From assembly GCA_963777505.1 (NCBI GenBank), contig CAVZQN010000011.1:128001-192000 (forward strand): a stretch of 64,000 nt of DNA, given 5' to 3'. The translations under genes were made by a program, and so were the position numbers. Positions within the stretch are counted from its first letter, which is position 1; each line of letters starts with the position of its first letter. The notes below the pieces were generated by a model that saw only the letters and a program-made list of their open reading frames with translations, did no database searches and was not told the origin of the DNA. The stretch comes from an uncultured bacterium. Lineage in GTDB: Bacteria; Acidobacteriota; HRBIN11; JAKEFK01. Positions 1,624 to 11,587 of the stretch are shown one piece after another.

Positions 1624-2034
1624 ATGAAAAACTTATTGTTTCTTTTTTTCGGAATCTATTTCGGAATCGTTCTGGTGAAAAGCGAGGCAGCTTCGTGGTT
1701 TCGCATTCAGGAGATGTTCCGTTTTCAATCGATTCACATGTATGGAATCATGGGAATCGCAGTTGCAATCGGTGCACTTTCGGTTTTCTTAATCAGAAGA
1801 CTGAAAATAAGATCAATAAATAATGAAATCATCAACCTTACAGGTAAGCCTTTCACCAAAGGGAATGTTATTGGCGGAATCATTTTTGGCCTTGGTTGGG
1901 CCATGACCGGTACATGTCCCGGACCGCTTTATACTCTTGTGGGGGGCGGCTATTTAATCATCATTCCCGTATTATTAAGCGCAATTTTTGGCGCCTATGT
2001 TTACGGGCTGCTCCGCGAGAAGTTGCCGCACTGA
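1624..2034 (+). CDS. YeeE/YedE family transporter second subunit (DUF6691-like)
   Basis: SWFRIQEMFRF and FGLGWAMTGTCPGP motifs; the usual split-gene partner of the preceding ORF. Confidence 0.9.
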   Translation: MKNLLFLFFGIYFGIVLVKSEAASWFRIQEMFRFQSIHMYGIMGIAVAIGALSVFLIRRLKIRSINNEIINLTGKPFTKGNVIGGIIFGLGWAMTGTCPGPLYTLVGGGYLIIIPVLLSAIFGAYVYGLLREKLPH

Positions 2035-2095
2035 GTCAGTGTTGCAAAAATTCAAGACAAAGGCTTACAATACTGGTTCTCTTTCTGCTCCAAAA

Positions 2096-2181
2096 GCCGG
2101 AGTGGCGGAACTGGCAGACGCACCGGACTCAAAATCCGGCGCTCAGTGATGAGCGTATCGGTTCGACTCCGATCTCCGGCA
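2096..2181 (+). tRNA. tRNA-Leu (CAA), long variable arm, CCA not encoded
   Basis: GCCGGAG...CTCCGGC-A acceptor stem; D-loop TGGCAGAC; anticodon arm CCGGA-CTCAAAA-TCCGG; variable arm GCTCA-GTGA-TGAGC; GGTTCGACTCC T-arm. Confidence 0.97.
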
Positions 2182-2248
2182 CAACACTGCCTTACAAGCT
2201 GCAGCCACGATTCAGAAACCCGTTTTCTTGGTGTGAATGCCAGATAAA

Positions 2249-2653
2249 TTAATAGAACAATTTATTGTCCGCATTCTTCCCGCCGGAAAAACATTTTTCT
2301 ACAGCTTTAATGAGGTGTGCATCTTCAAATGGTTTTGACAGAAACAGGCAAGGTTCTTTAAGTAAGACCCTTCTAATCTCTTGTTCTTGCTTATTGGATA
2401 GAAAAATAACTTCCGTAGTTGGACTGATAGCCAAAATAGTATTAGCAACATTCACGCCTTGCATTTCCCACTGTATGTGAGGCTCAATCAGTAATATCTG
2501 TGGCGGTGTACTTACGGCAATTTCAACTGCTTCTGTCGATGTGAGGGCTAAATCTACGAAGTAACCTTCTTTAATCAAGGTAATTGTTATGGCATCTGCA
2601 AGAGTGAAGTCTGGTTCTACAATTAAAATGCGCAGAATACTTTTAATTGGCAT
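2249..2653 (-). CDS. single-domain response regulator receiver, atypical (Glu at phosphoacceptor position)
   Basis: RILIVE, LLIEP where D is expected, IFLS, SKPF; GAGGG RBS; paralog of 6364..6774. Confidence 0.85.
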   Translation of the reverse strand: MPIKSILRILIVEPDFTLADAITITLIKEGYFVDLALTSTEAVEIAVSTPPQILLIEPHIQWEMQGVNVANTILAISPTTEVIFLSNKQEQEIRRVLLKEPCLFLSKPFEDAHLIKAVEKCFSGGKNADNKLFY

Positions 2654-2700
2654 TGTATCCCTCTTCGGCGAAGGATTAACTTAGTACACCAGCAAATTTT

Positions 2701-2882
2701 TTAGCCCAAATCACCCCTAGTCTTTCTTAGTTCTTCCCCAACGAACTCTTTTCCGCAGCACACGCAATAAAAAAAGATACTGATTCTCTACCAGATTGAA
2801 TCGTTCCTTTAAGACGCGTTTGACCACCACAACCTGGACATATCCGGTGGTCGCCCATTTCAATGGCATGTTTATGCCTCAT
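2701..2882 (-). CDS. small zinc-ribbon protein (CPGC...CVCC) with 1-nt frameshift in a T7 run
   Basis: CPGCGGQTRLKGTIQSGRESVS, then in the -1 frame YCVCCGKEFVGEELRKTRGDLG*. Collinear with paralog 6147..6335. Start codon uncertain. Confidence 0.7.
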
Positions 2883-3144
2883 CGTCCCCTGATTGGCGCT
2901 CGTTACTATCAGGAAATTGCTTCTAAAGTTGCAATGGATCGCGTTGAAATGCAGAGTGATAGTCATTCCTTAAAACTCCTGCTGGAGACCTTAGTAATTG
3001 TTTGAAAACCGAGGAAACTACACCTCTGGAACCCGGTGTAAAAGAATTCAAAATCTATGCGAAAGGAAGTGGCATAATCCAGGATGGATCTCTACTACTA
3101 ACAAAATACGGACGCGTTACTCTAAAAAAGCTGTACAAGGATTG

Positions 3145-5910
3145 ATGTTAAACATGCTTTCGCGGATTTCCATTCGCCCAGGTCTCTTCTTTTATATATT
3201 CATTGGAATCCTCTCTACGTCAATCTGGTTTGCGACTGATGCCTTCGGGCAAAGTCGAACAACCAGTGGCCTCACCGGAATTGTGGAAGATGAGAGCAGC
3301 GATGCAGCGGTTCCAGGCGCGATCGTTAAGATCGAAAGCCCTGACCTGATTGGAGGTGCTCGAACCGCAACCACAGATGAGAATGGGCGATTTAGATTCT
3401 TGGAATTACCACCAGGCATCTACAAGATCACCGTTACCCTGAACGGATACAAAACCGTACAAATCGAAGGCGTGAGACTTTCGGCTGGCATGACAGCAGA
3501 CATTCCAATCGATACGACACTCTACGTAGGTGAAGAGACGGTGATCGTTGAAGCCGGACCGAAAGAAATAGATCCGACGTCTTCCTCTCAGCAAACAGTG
3601 TTTCAGGAGGAATATCTCAAAAACATTCCTAACGACAGAGACACTTCCCACATTATGGATCTTGCACCCGGAATCAATATTGAGTCAGCGTTTGGTGGTG
3701 CTGAAGAATCCGGGATTGCATATCAAATGGATGGTGTGGACATTTCAGATCCTCAAGACGGATCACCATGGTCTTTTTTCAATTATAGTCTGATTGACGA
3801 AGTCGAATTAATCGCCCTTGGTGCACCTGCCGAGTATGGAGAATTCACCGGAGTCGTTTTTAACACAATTACCAAGTCCGGAGGAAATCAGTTCTCTGGT
3901 TCCGCAGAATTTTATTACAGCGACAAGAACCTTACTGCAAAGAATTCCGAATTTCTGGGTCTATTCCCGACAATCGAAAAGCATCAAGAAGAAAACGTTC
4001 AGCTGGGTGGTCCCATCAAGAAAGACAAGCTATGGTATTTCGTTTCAGCGCAATACGTAAAGGATTTATCAAGTGAAGGCGGGCCGATCGAAACACAGAA
4101 AGATCCGAGAGTCTTTCTAAAGCTGACATTTCAAGCTGACACTAAAAATACAATTGAAGGCTGGCTGGAATGGGATCATACGAAAGTCATTGGCAGGGAT
4201 GCAGACGCTTTTACTCCATTAGAAGCAACAACGGGAGAAGACAATCCGGAATTAGTCGGCAATTTTAGATGGAAATCTCAATTGTCGAATGATTCTGTTT
4301 TTACTCTTGCATGGGGTGGTTATTCCGGACATCGTCATTTTGATCCACACGGTGGCTTTTCAACTCCAGGTCATGAGGATGCACAAACAGGAAGAGCGTC
4401 TGTAAATGCGCGCCAGTTCGGCATCGTTGAAAGAAATCGTAATCAAATTAACGCCTTTCTTTCGCAAAACGTAAGTAACCTGATCACTGGCTATCACTCT
4501 TTTAAATTCGGAACCGAGATTGAGCGCTCGGTCGTCCACGATCGTTATGGCTTCCCAGGTGACGCGTTTTTTGTAGACAATGAGGGACCTGAGGAAGATC
4601 CAAGTACGGAAGAAGATGACTTCTTTACGCTAGCCTTTTTGGGAAATGGTTATGATGCCAATGGAACGAACCAACGCGTGTCTTTATATGCCCAAGATTC
4701 ATGGCAAATTACTCCAAGTTTTACGCTCAACCCCGGAATTCGATTAGATATAAACCGTGGCAAAGTTTCTGGAGGAGATACAGTTTTTAAAACATCTGGG
4801 TTAGCGCCGCGTATTGGATTCGCCTGGGATCTTGGGGATGACGGAGAGTCAATACTCAAAGCTCATTACGGACGATACTATGAAGCTCTTTATGCTGGCT
4901 ACTACTACTACATGGATCCCGGTGCATTCCATCCGCTTACTGTTAATAGAACCTTTAACGCAAGCGGATTCACCGAAACAATACTTTCAAATCCGGGCCA
5001 GAAGTACGCAATGGACCCGAATATCAAACATCCTTATTTGGATCAGTATATTTTTGGACTCGAGCAACAAATTCCATACGGGATCGTTCTTAGCGGCACC
5101 CTTGTATACAGGAAAAACAAGAATTTCATTGAGACAGTTAGCCGTGATGGTGTGTTCGTTCCTGTACCCGGAGTGATTCCTGACACAGGGCAACAGGTTA
5201 CACTCTTCGACCATCTGAATCCCAACTCGGATGTTCTGATTTACACAAATCCGCAGGGATTGCACCGCAAATATCGTGCAGTCATTCTTACAGCCAACAA
5301 AAGATTTCGAGACAACTGGCAACTCCTGGCATCCTATGTTTATTCAAAAACCCGCGGCAATATCGATAATTTGGGTTTCGATGAATTCGGAACCGGCGGG
5401 AATGTTCCGTTCTTCGATGGTCACTTTCTTGACACTCCTAACTCTTTTGTGAATGCCCAGGGAACATTAACTCACGATCAAACCCAGCAATTGAAATTTC
5501 AAGGAACCTACGTATTTCCTTCAACTAATTTATCGCTTTCGGCTAATTACACATACTACTCAGGCGATACATGGACACCACGCAACGACTGTTTATTGAC
5601 CGACGATGGGAACGGAATACTCGGAGATGGAATATTGGACTGTCATGAATTTCCACAAGGACCAGTTACATATTTATCGGAGCCTCGTGGCAACCGGCGG
5701 CTTCCGGCACGAAATGAAATTGATCTGCGTATTGCGTGGGAACCTGATTTTGGAAAACAGTATCAGCTAGGTCTGTATCTCGATATTTTCAATCTCACAA
5801 ATCAAACGCGGCCAACTGAAGTTGAACCTCAGGTTGGTGAGGAATTCGGAGAGCCCGTAAATCTTAATTTTCCGCGTAATGCTCGGCTAGGCCTGAGCTT
5901 CTCCTGGTAA
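3145..5910 (+). CDS. TonB-dependent receptor, Oar-like, with N-terminal carboxypeptidase-regulatory-like domain
   Basis: Signal peptide; TDENGRFRF..LPPGIYKITV domain; plug PAEYGEFTG..NTITKSGGN; LYAQDSWQI..TLNPGIR; C-terminal RLGLSFSW. Start 3145 or 3154 is more likely than 2998. Confidence 0.92.
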   Translation: MLNMLSRISIRPGLFFYIFIGILSTSIWFATDAFGQSRTTSGLTGIVEDESSDAAVPGAIVKIESPDLIGGARTATTDENGRFRFLELPPGIYKITVTLNGYKTVQIEGVRLSAGMTADIPIDTTLYVGEETVIVEAGPKEIDPTSSSQQTVFQEEYLKNIPNDRDTSHIMDLAPGINIESAFGGAEESGIAYQMDGVDISDPQDGSPWSFFNYSLIDEVELIALGAPAEYGEFTGVVFNTITKSGGNQFSGSAEFYYSDKNLTAKNSEFLGLFPTIEKHQEENVQLGGPIKKDKLWYFVSAQYVKDLSSEGGPIETQKDPRVFLKLTFQADTKNTIEGWLEWDHTKVIGRDADAFTPLEATTGEDNPELVGNFRWKSQLSNDSVFTLAWGGYSGHRHFDPHGGFSTPGHEDAQTGRASVNARQFGIVERNRNQINAFLSQNVSNLITGYHSFKFGTEIERSVVHDRYGFPGDAFFVDNEGPEEDPSTEEDDFFTLAFLGNGYDANGTNQRVSLYAQDSWQITPSFTLNPGIRLDINRGKVSGGDTVFKTSGLAPRIGFAWDLGDDGESILKAHYGRYYEALYAGYYYYMDPGAFHPLTVNRTFNASGFTETILSNPGQKYAMDPNIKHPYLDQYIFGLEQQIPYGIVLSGTLVYRKNKNFIETVSRDGVFVPVPGVIPDTGQQVTLFDHLNPNSDVLIYTNPQGLHRKYRAVILTANKRFRDNWQLLASYVYSKTRGNIDNLGFDEFGTGGNVPFFDGHFLDTPNSFVNAQGTLTHDQTQQLKFQGTYVFPSTNLSLSANYTYYSGDTWTPRNDCLLTDDGNGILGDGILDCHEFPQGPVTYLSEPRGNRRLPARNEIDLRIAWEPDFGKQYQLGLYLDIFNLTNQTRPTEVEPQVGEEFGEPVNLNFPRNARLGLSFSW

Positions 5911-5954
5911 TCACCTTCATTCTAAAACTGTCTCCGTCACACACCGATGCAAAT

Positions 5955-6019
5955 TTTTCAACACGAAGGCGCCAAGGTCTTTCGTGCTTATTTGTGCCTT
6001 CGTGACTTCGTGTTGAAAA
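5955..6019. repeat. intergenic palindromic repeat (AACACGAAG-type arms)
   Basis: TTTTCAACACGAAG ... CTTCGTGTTGAAAA, 14-bp inverted repeat. Confidence 0.75.
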
Positions 6020-6146
6020 GAGCTACAGCCTTAAGGCTTCCAACTTATGACGACATCCAAATTACGACATGCAGTACAAATCGTCGTTGTTCGTGCATAG
6101 ATTCAAAGTGAGTATCAGTGAGGGATAAAACGACCGTGAGGTGTAA

Positions 6147-6335
6147 GTGTCAGATGATTCCAAGCCATCAAAAGACTCTCGATCTTCATCAACTAAAGCT
6201 CAGTGTCCCCACTGCGGTGATTCCGTTTACCCGCTAGGAACAATTAAGACTGGTAGAGAATCGGTGAGCATCTATCGATGTAATGGTTGCAAGAAAGAAT
6301 TTGTGGGTGAGGAACTGAGAAAGAAATCAAAGTAA
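6147..6335 (+). CDS. small zinc-ribbon protein (CPHC...CNGC)
   Basis: Two CxxC motifs; GAGGTG RBS before GTG; shared motifs differ from paralog 2701..2882 largely at synonymous positions. Confidence 0.8.
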   Translation: MSDDSKPSKDSRSSSTKAQCPHCGDSVYPLGTIKTGRESVSIYRCNGCKKEFVGEELRKKSK

Positions 6336-6363
6336 GTATCTTTCTCAACATGAGAGGAAAACA

Positions 6364-6774
6364 CTGCCAATTAAAAGTAGCGCTCGCATTTTAATTGTAG
6401 AATCTGATTTCGCTATTGCGCAATCTCTTACAGTATTACTCTTAAAGCATGGCTTCTATATCGAACATGCCGACACGCCTACAGAAGCAGTGAACATGGC
6501 GATAAATAGTAGACCAAACTTGTTGATCATCGACCCTCATCTAGCCGGCGAGATGCAAGGAGTCGATGTAGCGAATACCATTCTGTCCTTGAGTCCAACA
6601 ACCGAAATCATATTTCTATCCACATGGAAGTCAGAAGAAGTAAAAAAAGTCATCATTAAAAAGCCATGTGAATTTTTTTCAAAACCATATGATGATGGAG
6701 AAATGATTGAAGCGGTAAACAAGTGTCTTGCGACCACTCACTCGAAGAGCTCCAATCAGGAATTGTTCTATTAG
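6364..6774 (+). CDS. single-domain response regulator receiver, probable CTG start
   Basis: GAGAGG-AAAACA-CTG CCA ATT AAA AGT aligns with ATG CCA ATT AAA AGT of 2249..2653. Extends the ORF-track call (6490) by 42 codons containing RILIVESD. LIIDP, FLS, SKP motifs. Confidence 0.85.
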   Translation: MPIKSSARILIVESDFAIAQSLTVLLLKHGFYIEHADTPTEAVNMAINSRPNLLIIDPHLAGEMQGVDVANTILSLSPTTEIIFLSTWKSEEVKKVIIKKPCEFFSKPYDDGEMIEAVNKCLATTHSKSSNQELFY

Positions 6775-6790
6775 AAAGAGACTTAAACGA

Positions 6791-7081
6791 CTACTCGCCA
6801 GCAGCCGCTTTGATTTTGCAGGAACAATGAGGAACGCACGATCCGCATTCTGTGCAGATTCCATGGTCACGTTCGCAAAGACAATTTAACGCATCTTCAC
6901 GATAGCCACAGCACCAACAATGGTCACTGATTACTGTAGCTTTGCCGCATTCACAATCGGCAGGATGACCCACATATCGAACACCGTTAAAGTAAGCGTG
7001 TCCAATTGTATCAATCCGAGCTTCGCCTTCTGCATCGCGCAGTGCAGTATGAAGGTCTTTCAAATAAAGATCATCTTTCAT
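6791..7081 (-). CDS. cysteine-rich small protein (12 Cys in C-terminal half), putative metal-binding
   Basis: CECG..HCWCCG..CLC..CTECGSC..HCSC; 30 bp downstream of the YHS gene on the same strand. Confidence 0.65.
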   Translation of the reverse strand: MKDDLYLKDLHTALRDAEGEARIDTIGHAYFNGVRYVGHPADCECGKATVISDHCWCCGYREDALNCLCERDHGICTECGSCVPHCSCKIKAAAGE

Positions 7082-7111
7082 CTACAGCCATACTACATTA
7101 ATTCCGTGTGA

Positions 7112-7291
7112 TTAGTTTCTTGGGGCTACTGAAATTGCATACTTTGCGGGATCCAAATCAAATTGGTCTTTACATACGATGGAACAGAAATAATATGTAG
7201 CTCCTTGATATCCGCTGTTGCCGGCCGCATTCTCTTCAGTGACTTCCATTCCACAAATCGGATCAACGTGAACATTGTCGTTATCAGCCAT
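7112..7291 (-). CDS. YHS domain protein (59 aa)
   Basis: Manual translation MADNDNVHVDPICGMEVTEENAAGNSGYQGATYYFCSIVCKDQFDLDPAKY...; DPxCGM and YYFCSxxCxxxF motifs; GGAGG RBS; below the ORF-track cutoff. Confidence 0.92.
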   Translation of the reverse strand: MADNDNVHVDPICGMEVTEENAAGNSGYQGATYYFCSIVCKDQFDLDPAKYAISVAPRN

Positions 7292-7407: not shown

Positions 7408-9717
7408 ATGGACCGAATCAAACATAATCTGATACGACTTCGACCTCGTCCGGATACGCTCTATGTCAGCCAGAATCGCACCGTTCTGGCAACTGAAAGG
7501 GATGGTTTTATCGATGAGGGCAGAGAACAGGGATTGTTTGTTCATCAAACGCGACTTCTTTCTCGCTACCGTATTCTCATCAATGGCAAAAGGCCAGTAC
7601 CCGTTGCACTTTCAAACGTAGAACAACATTCGTGGCTTGGCTATTACATTCTTCTTCCTCCCGATCTGAAAGCAGGAAAGCCTGATGAAGGAAGTGGTTT
7701 GCTTGAAGAAATGACTCAAAACGCGCTTGAGATGAGAATCTCAAGATTTGTGAGCGACGGTATTCATGAAGACATCGATCTGACAAATTTCACTCAACAA
7801 CCAACTTCATTCCAACTGACATTAGAAGTCGATGCTGATTTTGCAGATGTTGCCGAAACGAGAGGGCATCGCAAACAATTTGGAGAAATAACCAAACGTT
7901 GGATCCAGGGAAGTGATCATAAATGGCAGCTTGAACTGGACTACATTGCTAGAAACGAAAAAAGCAATGAAGGATTTGTAGAGATTCACAGAGGTTTAAC
8001 TTTCCAAATTGATCGATCTGACTCGCCTCCAATTTATGATATTGATTCGATCACTTTTTCAGTTGAACTCAATCCGCATCAAACATGGCATGCCTGCATC
8101 GATATGATTCCATACATAGATGGTGAACAATTCACAAAACCTCATAACTGCGGTTCCTTAAAGCTCACACACGAATATGATGTACGCCGTCTCATGTTCT
8201 TTTCTGAAGCTACACGCTTTTCAACATTGGAAAGTCAAACACTTTCGTCAGTTGTCATCGGTGCATTGGAGCAGGCAAAAAAGGATCTTGTTGCACTTCG
8301 TCTTTATGATCTCGATTTGCATGATCATGCCTGGATCACAGCCGCCGGGTTGCCGATTTATGTTGCATTATTTGGCCGCGATACGTTGACTGCTTCAATG
8401 CAAAGCGCTCTTGCAAGCACTTCTATGATGCGAGGCACACTCCGCGTCATTGCTGATTTGCAGGGCAAGGAAGTGAATGATTGGCGAGATGAACAGCCTG
8501 GTCGCATGTTACACGAAGCGCATACCGGGCCGCTGGCAATGTTGAATTACAACCCTAGAAGAAGATATTACGGATCGGTAACAACGTCAGGTTTTTATCC
8601 TGTCATCGTTTCCGAATTGTGGCATTGGACGGGTGACAAAGATTTAGTTGCCCCGCTCCTGAAGCCAGCAATGGATGCTTTGAAATGGTTAGATCAATAT
8701 GCGGACATCGATGGTGATGGTTTTTATGAATATCAAACGCATTCTATTCAAGGCGTAAAAAATCAGGGGTGGAAAGATTCTGGAGACGCAATCGTTTATG
8801 AAGATGGAAGTCAGGTCAATCCTCCAATTGCTACCTGCGAAGAACAAGCATTCGCTTTTTTAGCAAAGCTTCATCTTTCGGAAGTGTTGTGGTGGTTTGA
8901 TGAAAGAGAACTGGCAAGGCGCCTTTATCACGAAGCACAAGAATTGAAGAAACGTTTCAATGATTCATTTTGGATGGAAGAGGAAGGTTTTTTCGCGATG
9001 GCGCTCGATCCTGATAAACGGCAAGTAAAATCGATCGGATCCAACGCAGGCCATTGTCTTGCAGCGGGCATTGTGCATGAAGATTTTGTAGCACGAACCG
9101 CTCAGCGATTCGTTGCAGAGGACTTATTTACAGGCTGGGGTATCCGCACACTCTCTTCCCAGCATCCTGCGTATAACCCATACAGTTACCACAGAGGATC
9201 AGTTTGGCCAGTCGAACACGGCACTTTCGCAGTCGGCTTCGCGCGTTATGGATTACATGATTCGCTTCATCTGATTTGTAATGCCCAATTCAATGCAGCG
9301 TCTCTGTTTGATTTTTATCGCTTGCCGGAATTATTCAGCGGACATCAACTGGATGAAGATCATCCTTTTCCTGCAATGTATCCACAAGCCAACTCTCCGC
9401 AAGCATGGTCCGCTTCTACGATCTTTTATTTTGTTCAAGCGATGCTTGGACTCTATCCTTATGCTCCTTTGAAAATTCTGCTTGTTGATCCCTATCTTCC
9501 ATCATGGCTTCCTGAAATAACGCTGCATGACCTTCAGGTGGGAAATGCAAAGGTTTCAATCCGATTCTTTAGGAAAGAAAAAGGGAAGAGCGACTATGAG
9601 ATTCTGCAAAAAAAGGGAACGCTTCATGTTTTCAGGCAACCAAGTCCATGGTCATTGACAGCAAGGTTTGCTGAAAGATTGAAGGATGCTTTAACAAGTT
9701 TGCTTCCAGGAAAATAA
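7408..9717 (+). CDS. amylo-alpha-1,6-glucosidase / glycogen debranching family protein
   Basis: AGLPxYxALFGRD, EQPGRMLHE, NQGWKDSGD, SYHRGSVWP, RLPELF, PQAWS motifs. Confidence 0.9.
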   Translation: MDRIKHNLIRLRPRPDTLYVSQNRTVLATERDGFIDEGREQGLFVHQTRLLSRYRILINGKRPVPVALSNVEQHSWLGYYILLPPDLKAGKPDEGSGLLEEMTQNALEMRISRFVSDGIHEDIDLTNFTQQPTSFQLTLEVDADFADVAETRGHRKQFGEITKRWIQGSDHKWQLELDYIARNEKSNEGFVEIHRGLTFQIDRSDSPPIYDIDSITFSVELNPHQTWHACIDMIPYIDGEQFTKPHNCGSLKLTHEYDVRRLMFFSEATRFSTLESQTLSSVVIGALEQAKKDLVALRLYDLDLHDHAWITAAGLPIYVALFGRDTLTASMQSALASTSMMRGTLRVIADLQGKEVNDWRDEQPGRMLHEAHTGPLAMLNYNPRRRYYGSVTTSGFYPVIVSELWHWTGDKDLVAPLLKPAMDALKWLDQYADIDGDGFYEYQTHSIQGVKNQGWKDSGDAIVYEDGSQVNPPIATCEEQAFAFLAKLHLSEVLWWFDERELARRLYHEAQELKKRFNDSFWMEEEGFFAMALDPDKRQVKSIGSNAGHCLAAGIVHEDFVARTAQRFVAEDLFTGWGIRTLSSQHPAYNPYSYHRGSVWPVEHGTFAVGFARYGLHDSLHLICNAQFNAASLFDFYRLPELFSGHQLDEDHPFPAMYPQANSPQAWSASTIFYFVQAMLGLYPYAPLKILLVDPYLPSWLPEITLHDLQVGNAKVSIRFFRKEKGKSDYEILQKKGTLHVFRQPSPWSLTARFAERLKDALTSLLPGK

Positions 9718-9730
9718 AGGAGAATGCAAA

Positions 9731-9766
9731 ACCGCAGAGTCACGGAGAACTCTGTGACTCTGCGGT
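9731..9766. repeat. palindromic repeat between convergent genes (ACCGCAGAG-type), may also act as terminator
   Basis: ACCGCAGAGTCAC ... GTGACTCTGCGGT. Confidence 0.75.
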
Positions 9767-9770
9767 GAGC

Positions 9771-11492
9771 CTAGTACTTCCAGCTTTTTAGATCGGCTCC
9801 GGCGGGCGCAGATTGCTCGATGCGCTTCAAAATTTTGGGCAGATACATTGTGTTGTAACGGAGCCGTGAAATGTAATTCGGATTTTCGTGATCTCCATTC
9901 CAGCAATGTTCTGCGCGATCTCCATAATCCACTTCACCTGCATAATATGGATCTTTCGTTTTCTCCAGGAAGTCTTCCATCAGATAAACTGCATTATTCA
10001 AATAATAGTTATCCATGTCGCCGCAGTAGATGAAAAGTTTCCCCGTCAATTTCGGACCGAGTGTTTTCCAATCTCGCTCCAAAATGTAGCGCAGGTCATA
10101 CTTTTCTTGCCAGTATTTTGCGACATCAGGATCGATTTCGCCGGTGAGTTTATTGAAAATCGGCTTCGGATACCCGTCTTTGCCTTGTGGTGAATAAACG
10201 GCTTCCCAAATATCAAATTGCTGTCCGGATCTGCTTTTTGTTCCAAGGGCGAGTTCGCGATGATTCATTTGCTCTACGGTTGCATCAAGCTGACCAAGAT
10301 AATTACGATGCCCCGGCCGCATCAGTGTTTTGAATTGACTATCATAGCGGTACGCATTTTTGTTTTTGTAGATATCGATTGTTGTATAGGCGCGAAAGTC
10401 GATAGGATCGGGACACGCAACGAATGCTCCATTGTATTCGTCTGGATAAAACATCTGAACTGCGAGAGCTTCCCAGCCACCAGTTGAGCCACCATATACA
10501 AAACGTGCCCAGGGTTGTCCGATTGCACGAAATGTTTTTTCAATATGTGGAATCAATTCATAGGTGATTGCATCTCCATACGGACCAATGTTTGCAGAGT
10601 TCACAGCATAGGAATCATCGTAGTAAGGATTTGCATGTTGAATCTCCAACACAAGATAGCGCGGATGATCCTTGCTAATCCATTGTTTGTAAAAGTTGTG
10701 AGCCTCCTCTTGCTGAATCTTGTTGTAACCATGAAGATTGAAGCGTTCACTGAAATCTGGTTTTAGATTGGGATCAGGAGGTTCTGTGCGAAATCCGCCA
10801 ATATCCGCCGGGAAGTGGCCATGAAAAATCATGAGCGGGTAACGTGCTTCTGGATGTTCATCAAAACCTTCCGGTACCAACACGTGAGCTCCAAGGTAAA
10901 CGGGACGCCCCCAGAACTCTGATAGTTTCTCGCTCTTGATTTTCAGATGCCTTATATATTTCGTATCCTTCGGTTCTTCAATCGGTGGAATTTTTTGATC
11001 CATCACAATTCTGATGCTTTCTGTCTTGCCGGGATCGATCCGGATTTTCACGGGCTTACTATGAAAATTGCCAGGTTTTGTGTTCCATTGCTGACCTTCT
11101 CCCATTTCGGGCGGGAGCTTTACTGAATGTCCTGACTTTAAATTGAATGTCTCATAACGGTTGATGAGGGCTTGTACAAAATATTCTCCGGCCGGAACAT
11201 TTTTTAAACTTTGAATAGGATATCCAAAAGCAGTTGAATCGATTATTTTGTCTGCTCCTGGTTGCATCCCATCGACATCGATTCCGTACACAAGCTGAGT
11301 ATCAAGAGCGTCCGTAATTTGCATTCGTGGTTCTTCGGAGGCATCTACGGAAAGCATTAAAAGCAGTCTCCCATCCAAAGGTTTGTCGCTCAATTCCTTA
11401 GAAAAAGAAACAGCGAATTGCAGTTGAGATTCAGCTTGAAGGTTGACGCAAATCGCAAATAGAAATACTAAGCATGTACAGGTCAGCTTCAT
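9771..11492 (-). CDS. secreted alpha/beta-hydrolase-fold esterase-like protein
   Basis: Signal peptide; YPLMIFHGHF; nucleophile elbow GGSTGGW; GDMDNYYL; EHCW; AAGGAG RBS. Confidence 0.8.
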   Translation of the reverse strand: MKLTCTCLVFLFAICVNLQAESQLQFAVSFSKELSDKPLDGRLLLMLSVDASEEPRMQITDALDTQLVYGIDVDGMQPGADKIIDSTAFGYPIQSLKNVPAGEYFVQALINRYETFNLKSGHSVKLPPEMGEGQQWNTKPGNFHSKPVKIRIDPGKTESIRIVMDQKIPPIEEPKDTKYIRHLKIKSEKLSEFWGRPVYLGAHVLVPEGFDEHPEARYPLMIFHGHFPADIGGFRTEPPDPNLKPDFSERFNLHGYNKIQQEEAHNFYKQWISKDHPRYLVLEIQHANPYYDDSYAVNSANIGPYGDAITYELIPHIEKTFRAIGQPWARFVYGGSTGGWEALAVQMFYPDEYNGAFVACPDPIDFRAYTTIDIYKNKNAYRYDSQFKTLMRPGHRNYLGQLDATVEQMNHRELALGTKSRSGQQFDIWEAVYSPQGKDGYPKPIFNKLTGEIDPDVAKYWQEKYDLRYILERDWKTLGPKLTGKLFIYCGDMDNYYLNNAVYLMEDFLEKTKDPYYAGEVDYGDRAEHCWNGDHENPNYISRLRYNTMYLPKILKRIEQSAPAGADLKSWKY

Positions 11493-11514
11493 GGATGCTC
11501 CTTCGTAATTTCTG

Positions 11515-11587
11515 GTAGGGGCGGGCTTTATGCCCGCCCGTCAAGATACTAACGGAAGCGAAGGGCGGCCACAAGGGCCGCCCCTAC
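11515..11587. repeat. GTAG-type REP doublet
   Basis: GTAGGGGCGGGCTTTATGCCCGCCC ... GGGCGGCCACAAGGGCCGCCCCTAC. Confidence 0.85.

Follow-up and report, generated by a model that had tools for sequence, protein, structure and literature searches.

A probable inverted duplicate of a zinc-ribbon and pseudo-receiver cassette, partly decayed, around a TonB-dependent receptor gene in an uncultured acidobacterium

Introduction

Receiver domains that lack at least one of their five catalytic residues are known as pseudo-receivers, Glu being the commonest substitute at the phospho-acceptor Asp, and the way in which they are switched on and off was called a mystery in a 2025 review (PMC12632262). Here we describe a locus at positions 2249-6774 of a 64,000-nucleotide (nt) stretch of DNA, hereafter the window, from an uncultured bacterium of the Acidobacteriota (contig CAVZQN010000011.1), at which two units, each a gene for a zinc-ribbon microprotein followed by a gene for a stand-alone receiver, lie on either side of a gene for a TonB-dependent receptor (TBDR). 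The left-hand genes are called ZnR-L and REC-L, the right-hand ones ZnR-R and REC-R; G000 is the window's own genome, G001 a genome of the same genus, and G002 and G004 belong to one sister genus. We propose, at a probability of roughly 0.6 to 0.7, that the units are copies of an orphan, rare and lineage-restricted cassette, an inverted duplicate that has partly decayed and was joined to the TBDR gene by rearrangement. This is a structural and evolutionary account; what the cassette may do is a separate and more tentative matter.

The receivers of the cassette resemble the pseudo-receivers and aspartate-less receivers of atypical and orphan response regulators (PMC12632262) in their full Pfam receiver fold, in missing catalytic residues, with Glu at the Asp position in REC-L and in P0015, an ortholog of REC-R, and in belonging to a unit without a kinase gene. 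They differ in having no output domain of any kind (134-136 amino acids, aa), in being encoded behind a ribbon microprotein gene, and in forming a subfamily of their own, at most 29% identical to other receivers of the genome and marked by the motif EPH..EMQGV.VANTIL and a C-terminal LFY.

The best-scoring NCBIfam model for both receivers is that of the PhyR-family anti-anti-sigma factors (NF006623; E 3e-8 and 4e-13), which they match in its receiver part. The scores of 33.7 and 49.7 bits stand against a cut-off of 240, only model positions 136-256 are covered, and the sigma-like N-terminal domain is absent, which places the cassette receivers outside that family. The solved structures 9cb6 and 9by5, which we read as "PhyR-like", are receiver proteins of like size matched at residues 142-258, and 9cb6 is the second-best solved-structure match. 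The partner of PhyR is, we presume, a NepR-like helix, whereas the candidate partner microprotein in the cassette is a zinc ribbon.

That ribbon shares its CP.CG ... C..C..(K/R)(E/K)F pattern and its length with the N-terminal ribbon of insertion sequence (IS) transposases of the IS1/IS1595 type, with ECs_2282 CxxC, with the PaaD ribbon and with Lar, and weak but consistent hits to these families come from ZnR-R and from two of its relatives, P0004 and P0008, all below curated cut-offs. Unlike the transposases, the cassette ribbon is a stand-alone protein (58-91 aa) with a conserved EFVGEEL tail and no transposase body behind it. At the level of fold, the three-stranded ribbon also resembles those of NrdR, RPB9/TFIIS and RNA polymerase subunit C11 (top Foldseek hit RPB9, 1qyp; NrdR 9gex with a TM-score of 0.51 and a root-mean-square deviation of 1.8 A over 40 columns), but the fold is generic, no match reaches E<=0.001, identities are 18-25%, and there is no ATP-cone or polymerase context.

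Results

Two paralogous units, each a zinc-ribbon gene and then a receiver gene with 28-47 nt between them (both copies), point outward from the TBDR gene, as the original prediction had described. REC-L (2249..2653, minus strand), which encodes a 134-aa stand-alone pseudo-receiver from an ATG, the intact TBDR gene (3145..5910, plus strand) and ZnR-R (6147..6335, plus strand) lie where they had been placed, and REC-R, a receiver frame of 136 codons when read from a CTG (6364..6774, plus strand), likewise ends at 6774. The two receivers are 51% identical (E 1.5e-43), which is far beyond chance, the next-best receiver in the genome being only 29% identical to REC-L, and the zinc-ribbon gene has just these two copies in G000. 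Against a gathering cut-off of 30.2, REC-L and REC-R score 43.4 and 54.7 bits with the full Pfam Response_reg model (model positions 1-111 of 111 in REC-L), which places both in the receiver domain family. Response_reg is the sole domain of these proteins of 134 and 136 aa, in agreement with the statement that the unit holds no kinase or output domain, and the receiver motifs singled out earlier (PIKS, RILIVE, PH, EMQGV.VANTIL, SPTTE, FLS, SKP and the C-terminal LFY) are all invariant alignment columns.

Differences between the paralogs fall mostly at third codon positions, again as described, with 53/22/70 differences by codon position in the receivers and 13/12/24 in the 40 aligned zinc-ribbon codons. 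By the Nei-Gojobori method, the receivers give proportions of non-synonymous (pN) and synonymous (pS) differences of 0.289 and 0.615 over 134 codons, and a ratio of non-synonymous to synonymous rates (dN/dS) of ~0.28; the 40 ribbon codons give a pN of 0.287, with synonymous sites saturated. The comparison of dN/dS between paralogs had been proposed as a check on the original prediction, and its outcome supports a duplicated two-gene unit under purifying selection, to which both genes have thus been subject during most of the time since duplication.

Active-site positions were read from an alignment of REC-R to the solved structure 3cu5 together with a three-sequence alignment of REC-L, REC-R and P0015, the last encoded on a 5.6-kb ENA contig, 88% identical to REC-R and beginning MPIKSS. 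The first acidic position (DD1) is E13, the second (DD2) is P14 in REC-L and P0015 or S14 in REC-R, the T position is S86 and the K position K107; the phospho-Asp position is E57 in REC-L and P0015 and D57 in REC-R. The second acidic residue is therefore P or S in all three receivers, Glu occupies the phospho-Asp site in two of the three, and none has the five catalytic residues (DD, D, T/S, K) of a canonical phosphorylatable receiver. By the definition given in the review (PMC12632262), all three are pseudo-receivers, and its narrower aspartate-less class, in which the phospho-acceptor Asp is replaced, takes in REC-L and P0015 (Glu) and leaves out REC-R (Asp). P0015 shares both P14 and E57 with REC-L, and the Asp57 of REC-R is apparently a derived state. 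The receivers are acidic (pI 5.0-5.5), and the pI is 9.0-9.4 in five of the six ribbon family sequences and 7.8 in the C-terminal part of P0008.

ZnR-R encodes an intact, basic zinc-ribbon microprotein of 62 aa (pI 9.2, four Cys) from a GTG start with GAGGTG upstream. Its AF2 model has three strands (residues 26-35, 38-45 and 51-53) and a short C-terminal helix, with a predicted local distance difference test score of ~90 in the core. C20, C23, C45 and C48 are invariant in all six family sequences, and in the model these form the two Cys knuckles around a three-stranded sheet that would be expected of a zinc ribbon. The family has exactly four Cys and no spare conserved Cys or His, a set that fits a structural zinc site. 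Named ribbon families all scored below their curated cut-offs: ECs_2282_CxxC 22.7 bits against 37, Zn_ribbon_PaaD 23.4 against 27, Lar 20.5 against 39.6, the Pfam IS1/IS1595 ribbon 20.8 against 25.4, and NCBIfam IS1_IS1595_Zn 20.6 against 28. The earlier impression that the pair is not a described system stands to the extent that, in Pfam and NCBIfam, no curated family other than the generic receiver domain was above cut-off. A prediction of the complex from the REC-R alignment and ZnR-R residues 14-62 gave a score of 0.00, which the tool reads as "no answer".

The expectation of an intact module on each side was not borne out. ZnR-L is split between two reading frames: the frame-0 part (2727..2882, minus strand, ATG at 2882) encodes the first CP.CG knuckle and the beta-hairpin, runs into an out-of-frame tail and stops after SVSFFIACAAEKSSLGKN, and the second C..C knuckle with the KEFVGEELRK tail is read in the -1 frame (2701..2781, minus strand), ending in FFYCVCCGKEFVGEELRKTRGDLG before the stop. 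P0008, encoded on a 56-kb ENA contig, spans both frames uninterrupted, its residues 95-131 matching frame 0 (ZnR-L residues 4-39) and its residues 129-150 the -1 frame. Alignment of the ZnR-L DNA requires a 1-nt gap at or near a run of seven T (T7) at 2769-2775, which is likely to be the site of a 1-nt loss. Of the zinc-ribbon motif said to be common to the two sides, both CP.CG..GTI.SGRESVS and C..C.KEFVGEELRK are thus present on the left, but in different frames on account of the 1-nt shift. The ten tail codons past the shift show 6 synonymous and 0 non-synonymous differences between ZnR-L and ZnR-R, which makes the shift either recent or artefactual. The run contains the heptamer T TTT TTT, but the signals of a programmed -1 frameshift are otherwise lacking there, with no downstream structure and with IYN read at the site in P0008; each of 200 shuffled versions folds better than the actual 79 nt past the run (z +2.38). 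The ZnR-L ATG at 2882 sits antisense within the remnant of another gene, p246, that begins at 2865, which indicates that the native 5' end of ZnR-L was lost at this junction.

REC-R carries a lesion of a different kind. In its stop-to-stop frame (6319-6774) the first canonical start (ATG, GTG or TTG) occurs only at 6490, and the codon that aligns with the REC-L ATG is the CTG at 6364, preceded by a Shine-Dalgarno-like GAGAGG. The motif PIKS..RILIVE is indeed common to both receivers, as had been claimed, but in REC-R it lies upstream of any ATG, GTG or TTG. When the two orthologs are polarised with REC-L as the outgroup, 7 changes fall to REC-R alone (M1L, P14S and E57D among them) and 1 to P0015 alone. 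Judged from the reading frames, one intact ribbon gene (ZnR-R, on the right) and one intact receiver gene (REC-L, on the left) remain. No further split gene was evident among the 46 open reading frames (ORFs) of at least 110 aa that cover 88.7% of the window, and three overlapping same-strand pairs that were checked are not halves of one family, which suggests that the assembly of the window is not riddled with indels.

The TBDR has Pfam scores of 132.7 bits for OMP_b-brl_4, 59.8 for an N-terminal CarboxypepD_reg domain and 42.5 for TonB_dep_Rec_b-barrel, the barrel models being above cut-off and the plug (15.8 against 23.9) below it; ATG 3145 is the likely start, and the longest ORF begins at TTG 2998. 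It is 66% identical over 922 residues to its G002 ortholog. Orthologs at 68-69% identity occur in G002 and G004, the two sister-genus genomes that carry one, in both cases preceded by a p246-like gene for a secreted protein (246 aa in G002, 258 aa in G004). With these queries, neither genome (completeness 84% and 93%) yielded a zinc-ribbon gene or a gene resembling REC-L. In the window, the corresponding position holds only a remnant of p246 (2865..3145, plus strand, residues 158-240 of the 246-aa gene; ORF 2963-3145), recovered by tblastn with the G002 protein in two frames, 2865-2975 and 2969-3112, at 68% and 79% identity (E 1e-29). This frameshifted C-terminal third of the gene, whose stop overlaps the TBDR ATG, abuts ZnR-L, so that p246 is truncated exactly at the start of the left unit.

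Further upstream of the G002 ortholog are genes for an OmpR-type regulator and a HAMP kinase, for which families of the heavy-metal type score best, a little under cut-off. G000 has counterparts of that pair 12 kb upstream of the window (G000:C11:115812-118622; L047 3773-6637), the regulator at 77% and the kinase at 51% identity, and their best families are again of the heavy-metal type and just short of cut-off; beside them is a p246 paralog that shares 47% identity with the protein of G002. To judge from this gene order, an ancestral block of regulator, kinase, p246 and TBDR genes seems to have been split by ~12 kb in G000. A tRNA-Leu(CAA) gene (2096..2182, plus strand; ARAGORN) marks the left edge of the stretch in which the window and the same-genus genome diverge: G001 retains the dioxygenase gene, the tRNA-Leu gene and the 769-aa GDE-like gene, with different genes between them, including an RND efflux cluster, and its best TBDR match is only 36% identical. 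Because a displaced p246-TBDR fragment has a cassette copy at each of its break points, in a stretch that varies between congeners, the link to the TBDR appears secondary and looks like a product of rearrangement.

The cassette is rare in the collections searched. An exhaustive search of 1.84 billion representatives with the ribbon gave 13 hits at E<=1e-3, five of which, P0004, P0005, P0007, P0008 and P0009 (46-54% identity, 58-151 aa), were judged from their sequences to be true relatives; the remainder were rejected on reading as LIM, C2H2 or other cysteine-pattern matches. In 40 related genomes ZnR-R had no relative, other matches being weak and within 464-467-aa ORFs of one genus, and REC-L had none at E<=1e-12. 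When 400 further genomes from the phylum were searched with a hidden Markov model (HMM) of the ribbon family, none yielded a convincing relative: there were five weak matches in ORFs of 43-464 aa, and the one opened, in genome G010, has the best score outside G000 and falls on the zinc ribbon of an IS1595-like transposase. A word-based search of a 5.8-billion-protein collection returned a single ortholog of REC-R, P0015. That search is lossy, the REC-L query having returned only itself and missed P0015, and it supports no claim of absence; ZnR-R retrieved nothing, not even itself, which implies that gene calling had missed it.

Metagenome contig scans with the ribbon and receiver alignments gave 25 and 320 pattern matches and 0 relatives, and a viral contig scan 30 and 0. 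Among 16 pattern matches in the genome_contigs scan, two apparent "relatives" are Nob1-like PIN and zinc-ribbon proteins of ammonia-oxidising archaea (L028 5617-6126; L029 5617-6096); their CKKEFVGEE, identical to the ribbon tail motif, was judged a chance match in a different ribbon. No match was found by tblastn in plasmid and phage collections, PADLOC and PHROGs gave weak, generic matches only, and ESM Atlas gave generic small hypothetical proteins sharing at most 141 of 256 features. A literature search found no paper on the pairing of a zinc-ribbon microprotein with a stand-alone receiver, which is not proof that none exists.

No RNA run is among the public runs listed for the locus. The sole public run with related DNA, a soil metagenome (X1, share 0.10), contains short contigs ~96% identical to the TBDR gene over window positions 3137-5615, which indicates that a close relative of the organism was present in that sample. 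Of two further contigs in this run, one of 213 nt falls on 2779-2853 and one of 310 nt connects 2724 (minus strand) with 6368 (plus strand). The coverage of X1 omits both the T7 run and the CTG.

Several further features lie in or near the locus. A long hairpin with 23-nt arms (inverted repeat I3, 5955..6019) starts 45 nt past the TBDR stop, ahead of ZnR-R; it has no T tract behind it and is single-copy in G000, and similarity to its 3' arm occurs at two places in G001, over 29-36 nt. Beyond REC-R, on the minus strand, are a 96-aa Cys-rich ORF (6791-7081; 12 Cys and 6 His, no Pfam or NCBIfam family) and the gene for a 59-aa YHS-domain protein (7112-7291; YHS 60.1 bits), neighbours in the variable stretch whose membership of the cassette is not implied. 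The two may form a small metal-handling pair, and their region (6791-7291) has no DNA match in G001. In the corresponding G001 locus (L027 = G001:C4:86000-101000), the end of the GDE-like gene at 1883-3988 differs from that of the 769-aa gene in the window, and at 8422-11572 two ORFs of 691 and 354 aa make up what should be a single RND transporter gene; both oddities are possibly frameshifts or pseudogenes in that assembly. At L047 10572-10650, ~77 nt match dozens of G002 sites on both strands at 75-100% identity and behave as a palindromic dispersed repeat, resembling repetitive extragenic palindromes (REP) or miniature inverted-repeat transposable elements (MITE).

Discussion

We propose that an old inverted duplication of a two-gene cassette, encoding a basic four-Cys ribbon microprotein and then an acidic pseudo-receiver without an output domain, left copies that now stand at both break points of a displaced fragment carrying the truncated p246 and the TBDR gene, beside tRNA-Leu(CAA) in a stretch that differs between congeners. 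Erosion in this genome would have deprived ZnR-L of its own 5' end and introduced the 1-nt frameshift, and in REC-R would have turned ATG into CTG and also affected positions of the active site. Since the duplication, each copy would be losing one of its genes, leaving ZnR-R and REC-L.

A number of observations weigh against this account. The T7 indel could be an assembly error, and X1, the only run that might speak to it, does not cover 2769-2775. CTG is able to start translation weakly, and with GAGAGG suitably spaced ahead of it REC-R may yet be produced. Neither receiver frame is interrupted anywhere in its 134-136 codons, a state that fits poorly with long-standing pseudogenes, and the 7:1 asymmetry between the REC-R and P0015 branches is based on 8 sites. 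The 310-nt X1 contig joins a ribbon tail to a receiver start, implying that the ribbon-receiver pair is kept in at least one close relative. Finally, the claim that the TBDR link is secondary is based on two genomes of one sister genus.

Some of these points could be taken together to mean that both units are functional and their lesions harmless, the indel being an assembly error or bypassed by slippage and the CTG a genuine weak start, in which case the locus would hold a duplicated pair of regulators in working order, with no relation to the TBDR. The perfect conservation of the tail past the shift as protein, across 6 synonymous changes, would fit this, as would a slippery heptamer in frame 0, the properly spaced Shine-Dalgarno-like sequence, the open receiver frames, and a 67-nt segment around the receiver starts that is 81% alike, against ~63% overall. 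We nevertheless consider it unlikely. With the ZnR-L start antisense in the p246 remnant, the native 5' end is gone whatever the length of the T run; the run has no structure downstream, and the Phe-Phe site is not conserved in protein, P0008 reading IYN where the window reads FFY. The CTG is not explicable as a homopolymer error, and P14 and E57, otherwise invariant, are also changed in REC-R.

The original prediction saw in the locus a duplicated module, a metal- or redox-binding microprotein with a receiver, possibly tied to expression of the receptor; on this reading the module would sense metal or redox state and control expression of the TBDR that it flanks. The units do flank the TBDR symmetrically, a YHS-domain gene and a Cys-rich gene adjoin them, and the heavy-metal-type two-component system beside the G002 ortholog makes a metal theme for the TBDR itself plausible. 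The tie to the TBDR was not upheld, however: the orthologs in G002 and G004 stand behind a p246-like gene without the cassette, the kind of unrelated context in sister genomes that the prediction itself had named as evidence against it, and where the left unit joins, the partner gene conserved ahead of the TBDR has been destroyed. The ribbon has just four structural-type Cys and no spare conserved Cys or His, and one gene of each unit is damaged, which leaves a control module of this kind quite improbable.

A third reading is that a composite mobile element, with the inverted units as its arms, picked up the p246-TBDR fragment, and that the ribbon is a relic of an IS1/IS1595-type transposase N-terminus. 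It would account for the placing of the inverted copies, one precisely at each break point and beside a tRNA gene, for the consistent sub-threshold IS1/IS1595 ribbon hits in Pfam and NCBIfam, and for the top rank of the G010 transposase among the family HMM hits from other genomes of the phylum. It is nevertheless very improbable. A composite transposon or IS calls for a transposase gene and near-identical terminal copies, whereas the islet has no transposase, integrase or recombinase domain (Pfam, NCBIfam) and its second gene is a genuine receiver. Identity between the arms amounts to just 51% as protein and ~63% as DNA, much lower than between active IS copies, with a best inverted stretch of 67 nt at 81%, and neither terminal repeats or target duplications nor a match in the plasmid or phage collections was found.

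To return to the decayed, inverted cassette that we favour, its function can be addressed only tentatively. Lacking the second acidic residue, and with Glu usually standing in place of Asp, the receiver would be unable to take part in normal phosphotransfer and may instead be a switch that works through protein interaction, independently of phosphorylation. The ribbon, which is basic and akin to those of the IS1/IS1595 and NrdR types, would then be its nucleic-acid-binding or partner-binding output. We regard this functional step as possible but rather unlikely as it stands. More doubtful still is the idea of a new kind of two-protein switch, a "split atypical response regulator", in which a Glu-type pseudo-receiver would gate a separate DNA- or RNA-binding ribbon and reciprocal decay would have left ZnR-R and REC-L acting in trans. 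What the locus provides is a real finding on an ordinary scale rather than a demonstrated new signalling system.

The evidence, read from sequence, comes from one lineage and from damaged copies. If it is true that a stand-alone Glu-type pseudo-receiver is always encoded behind one microprotein, the cassette would offer a tractable minimal case of the switching that the 2025 review calls a mystery (PMC12632262). The locus also carries two lessons: a frameshift can be hidden by motifs that match across frames, and the mirror symmetry around the TBDR would be the scar of a rearrangement, not regulatory logic.

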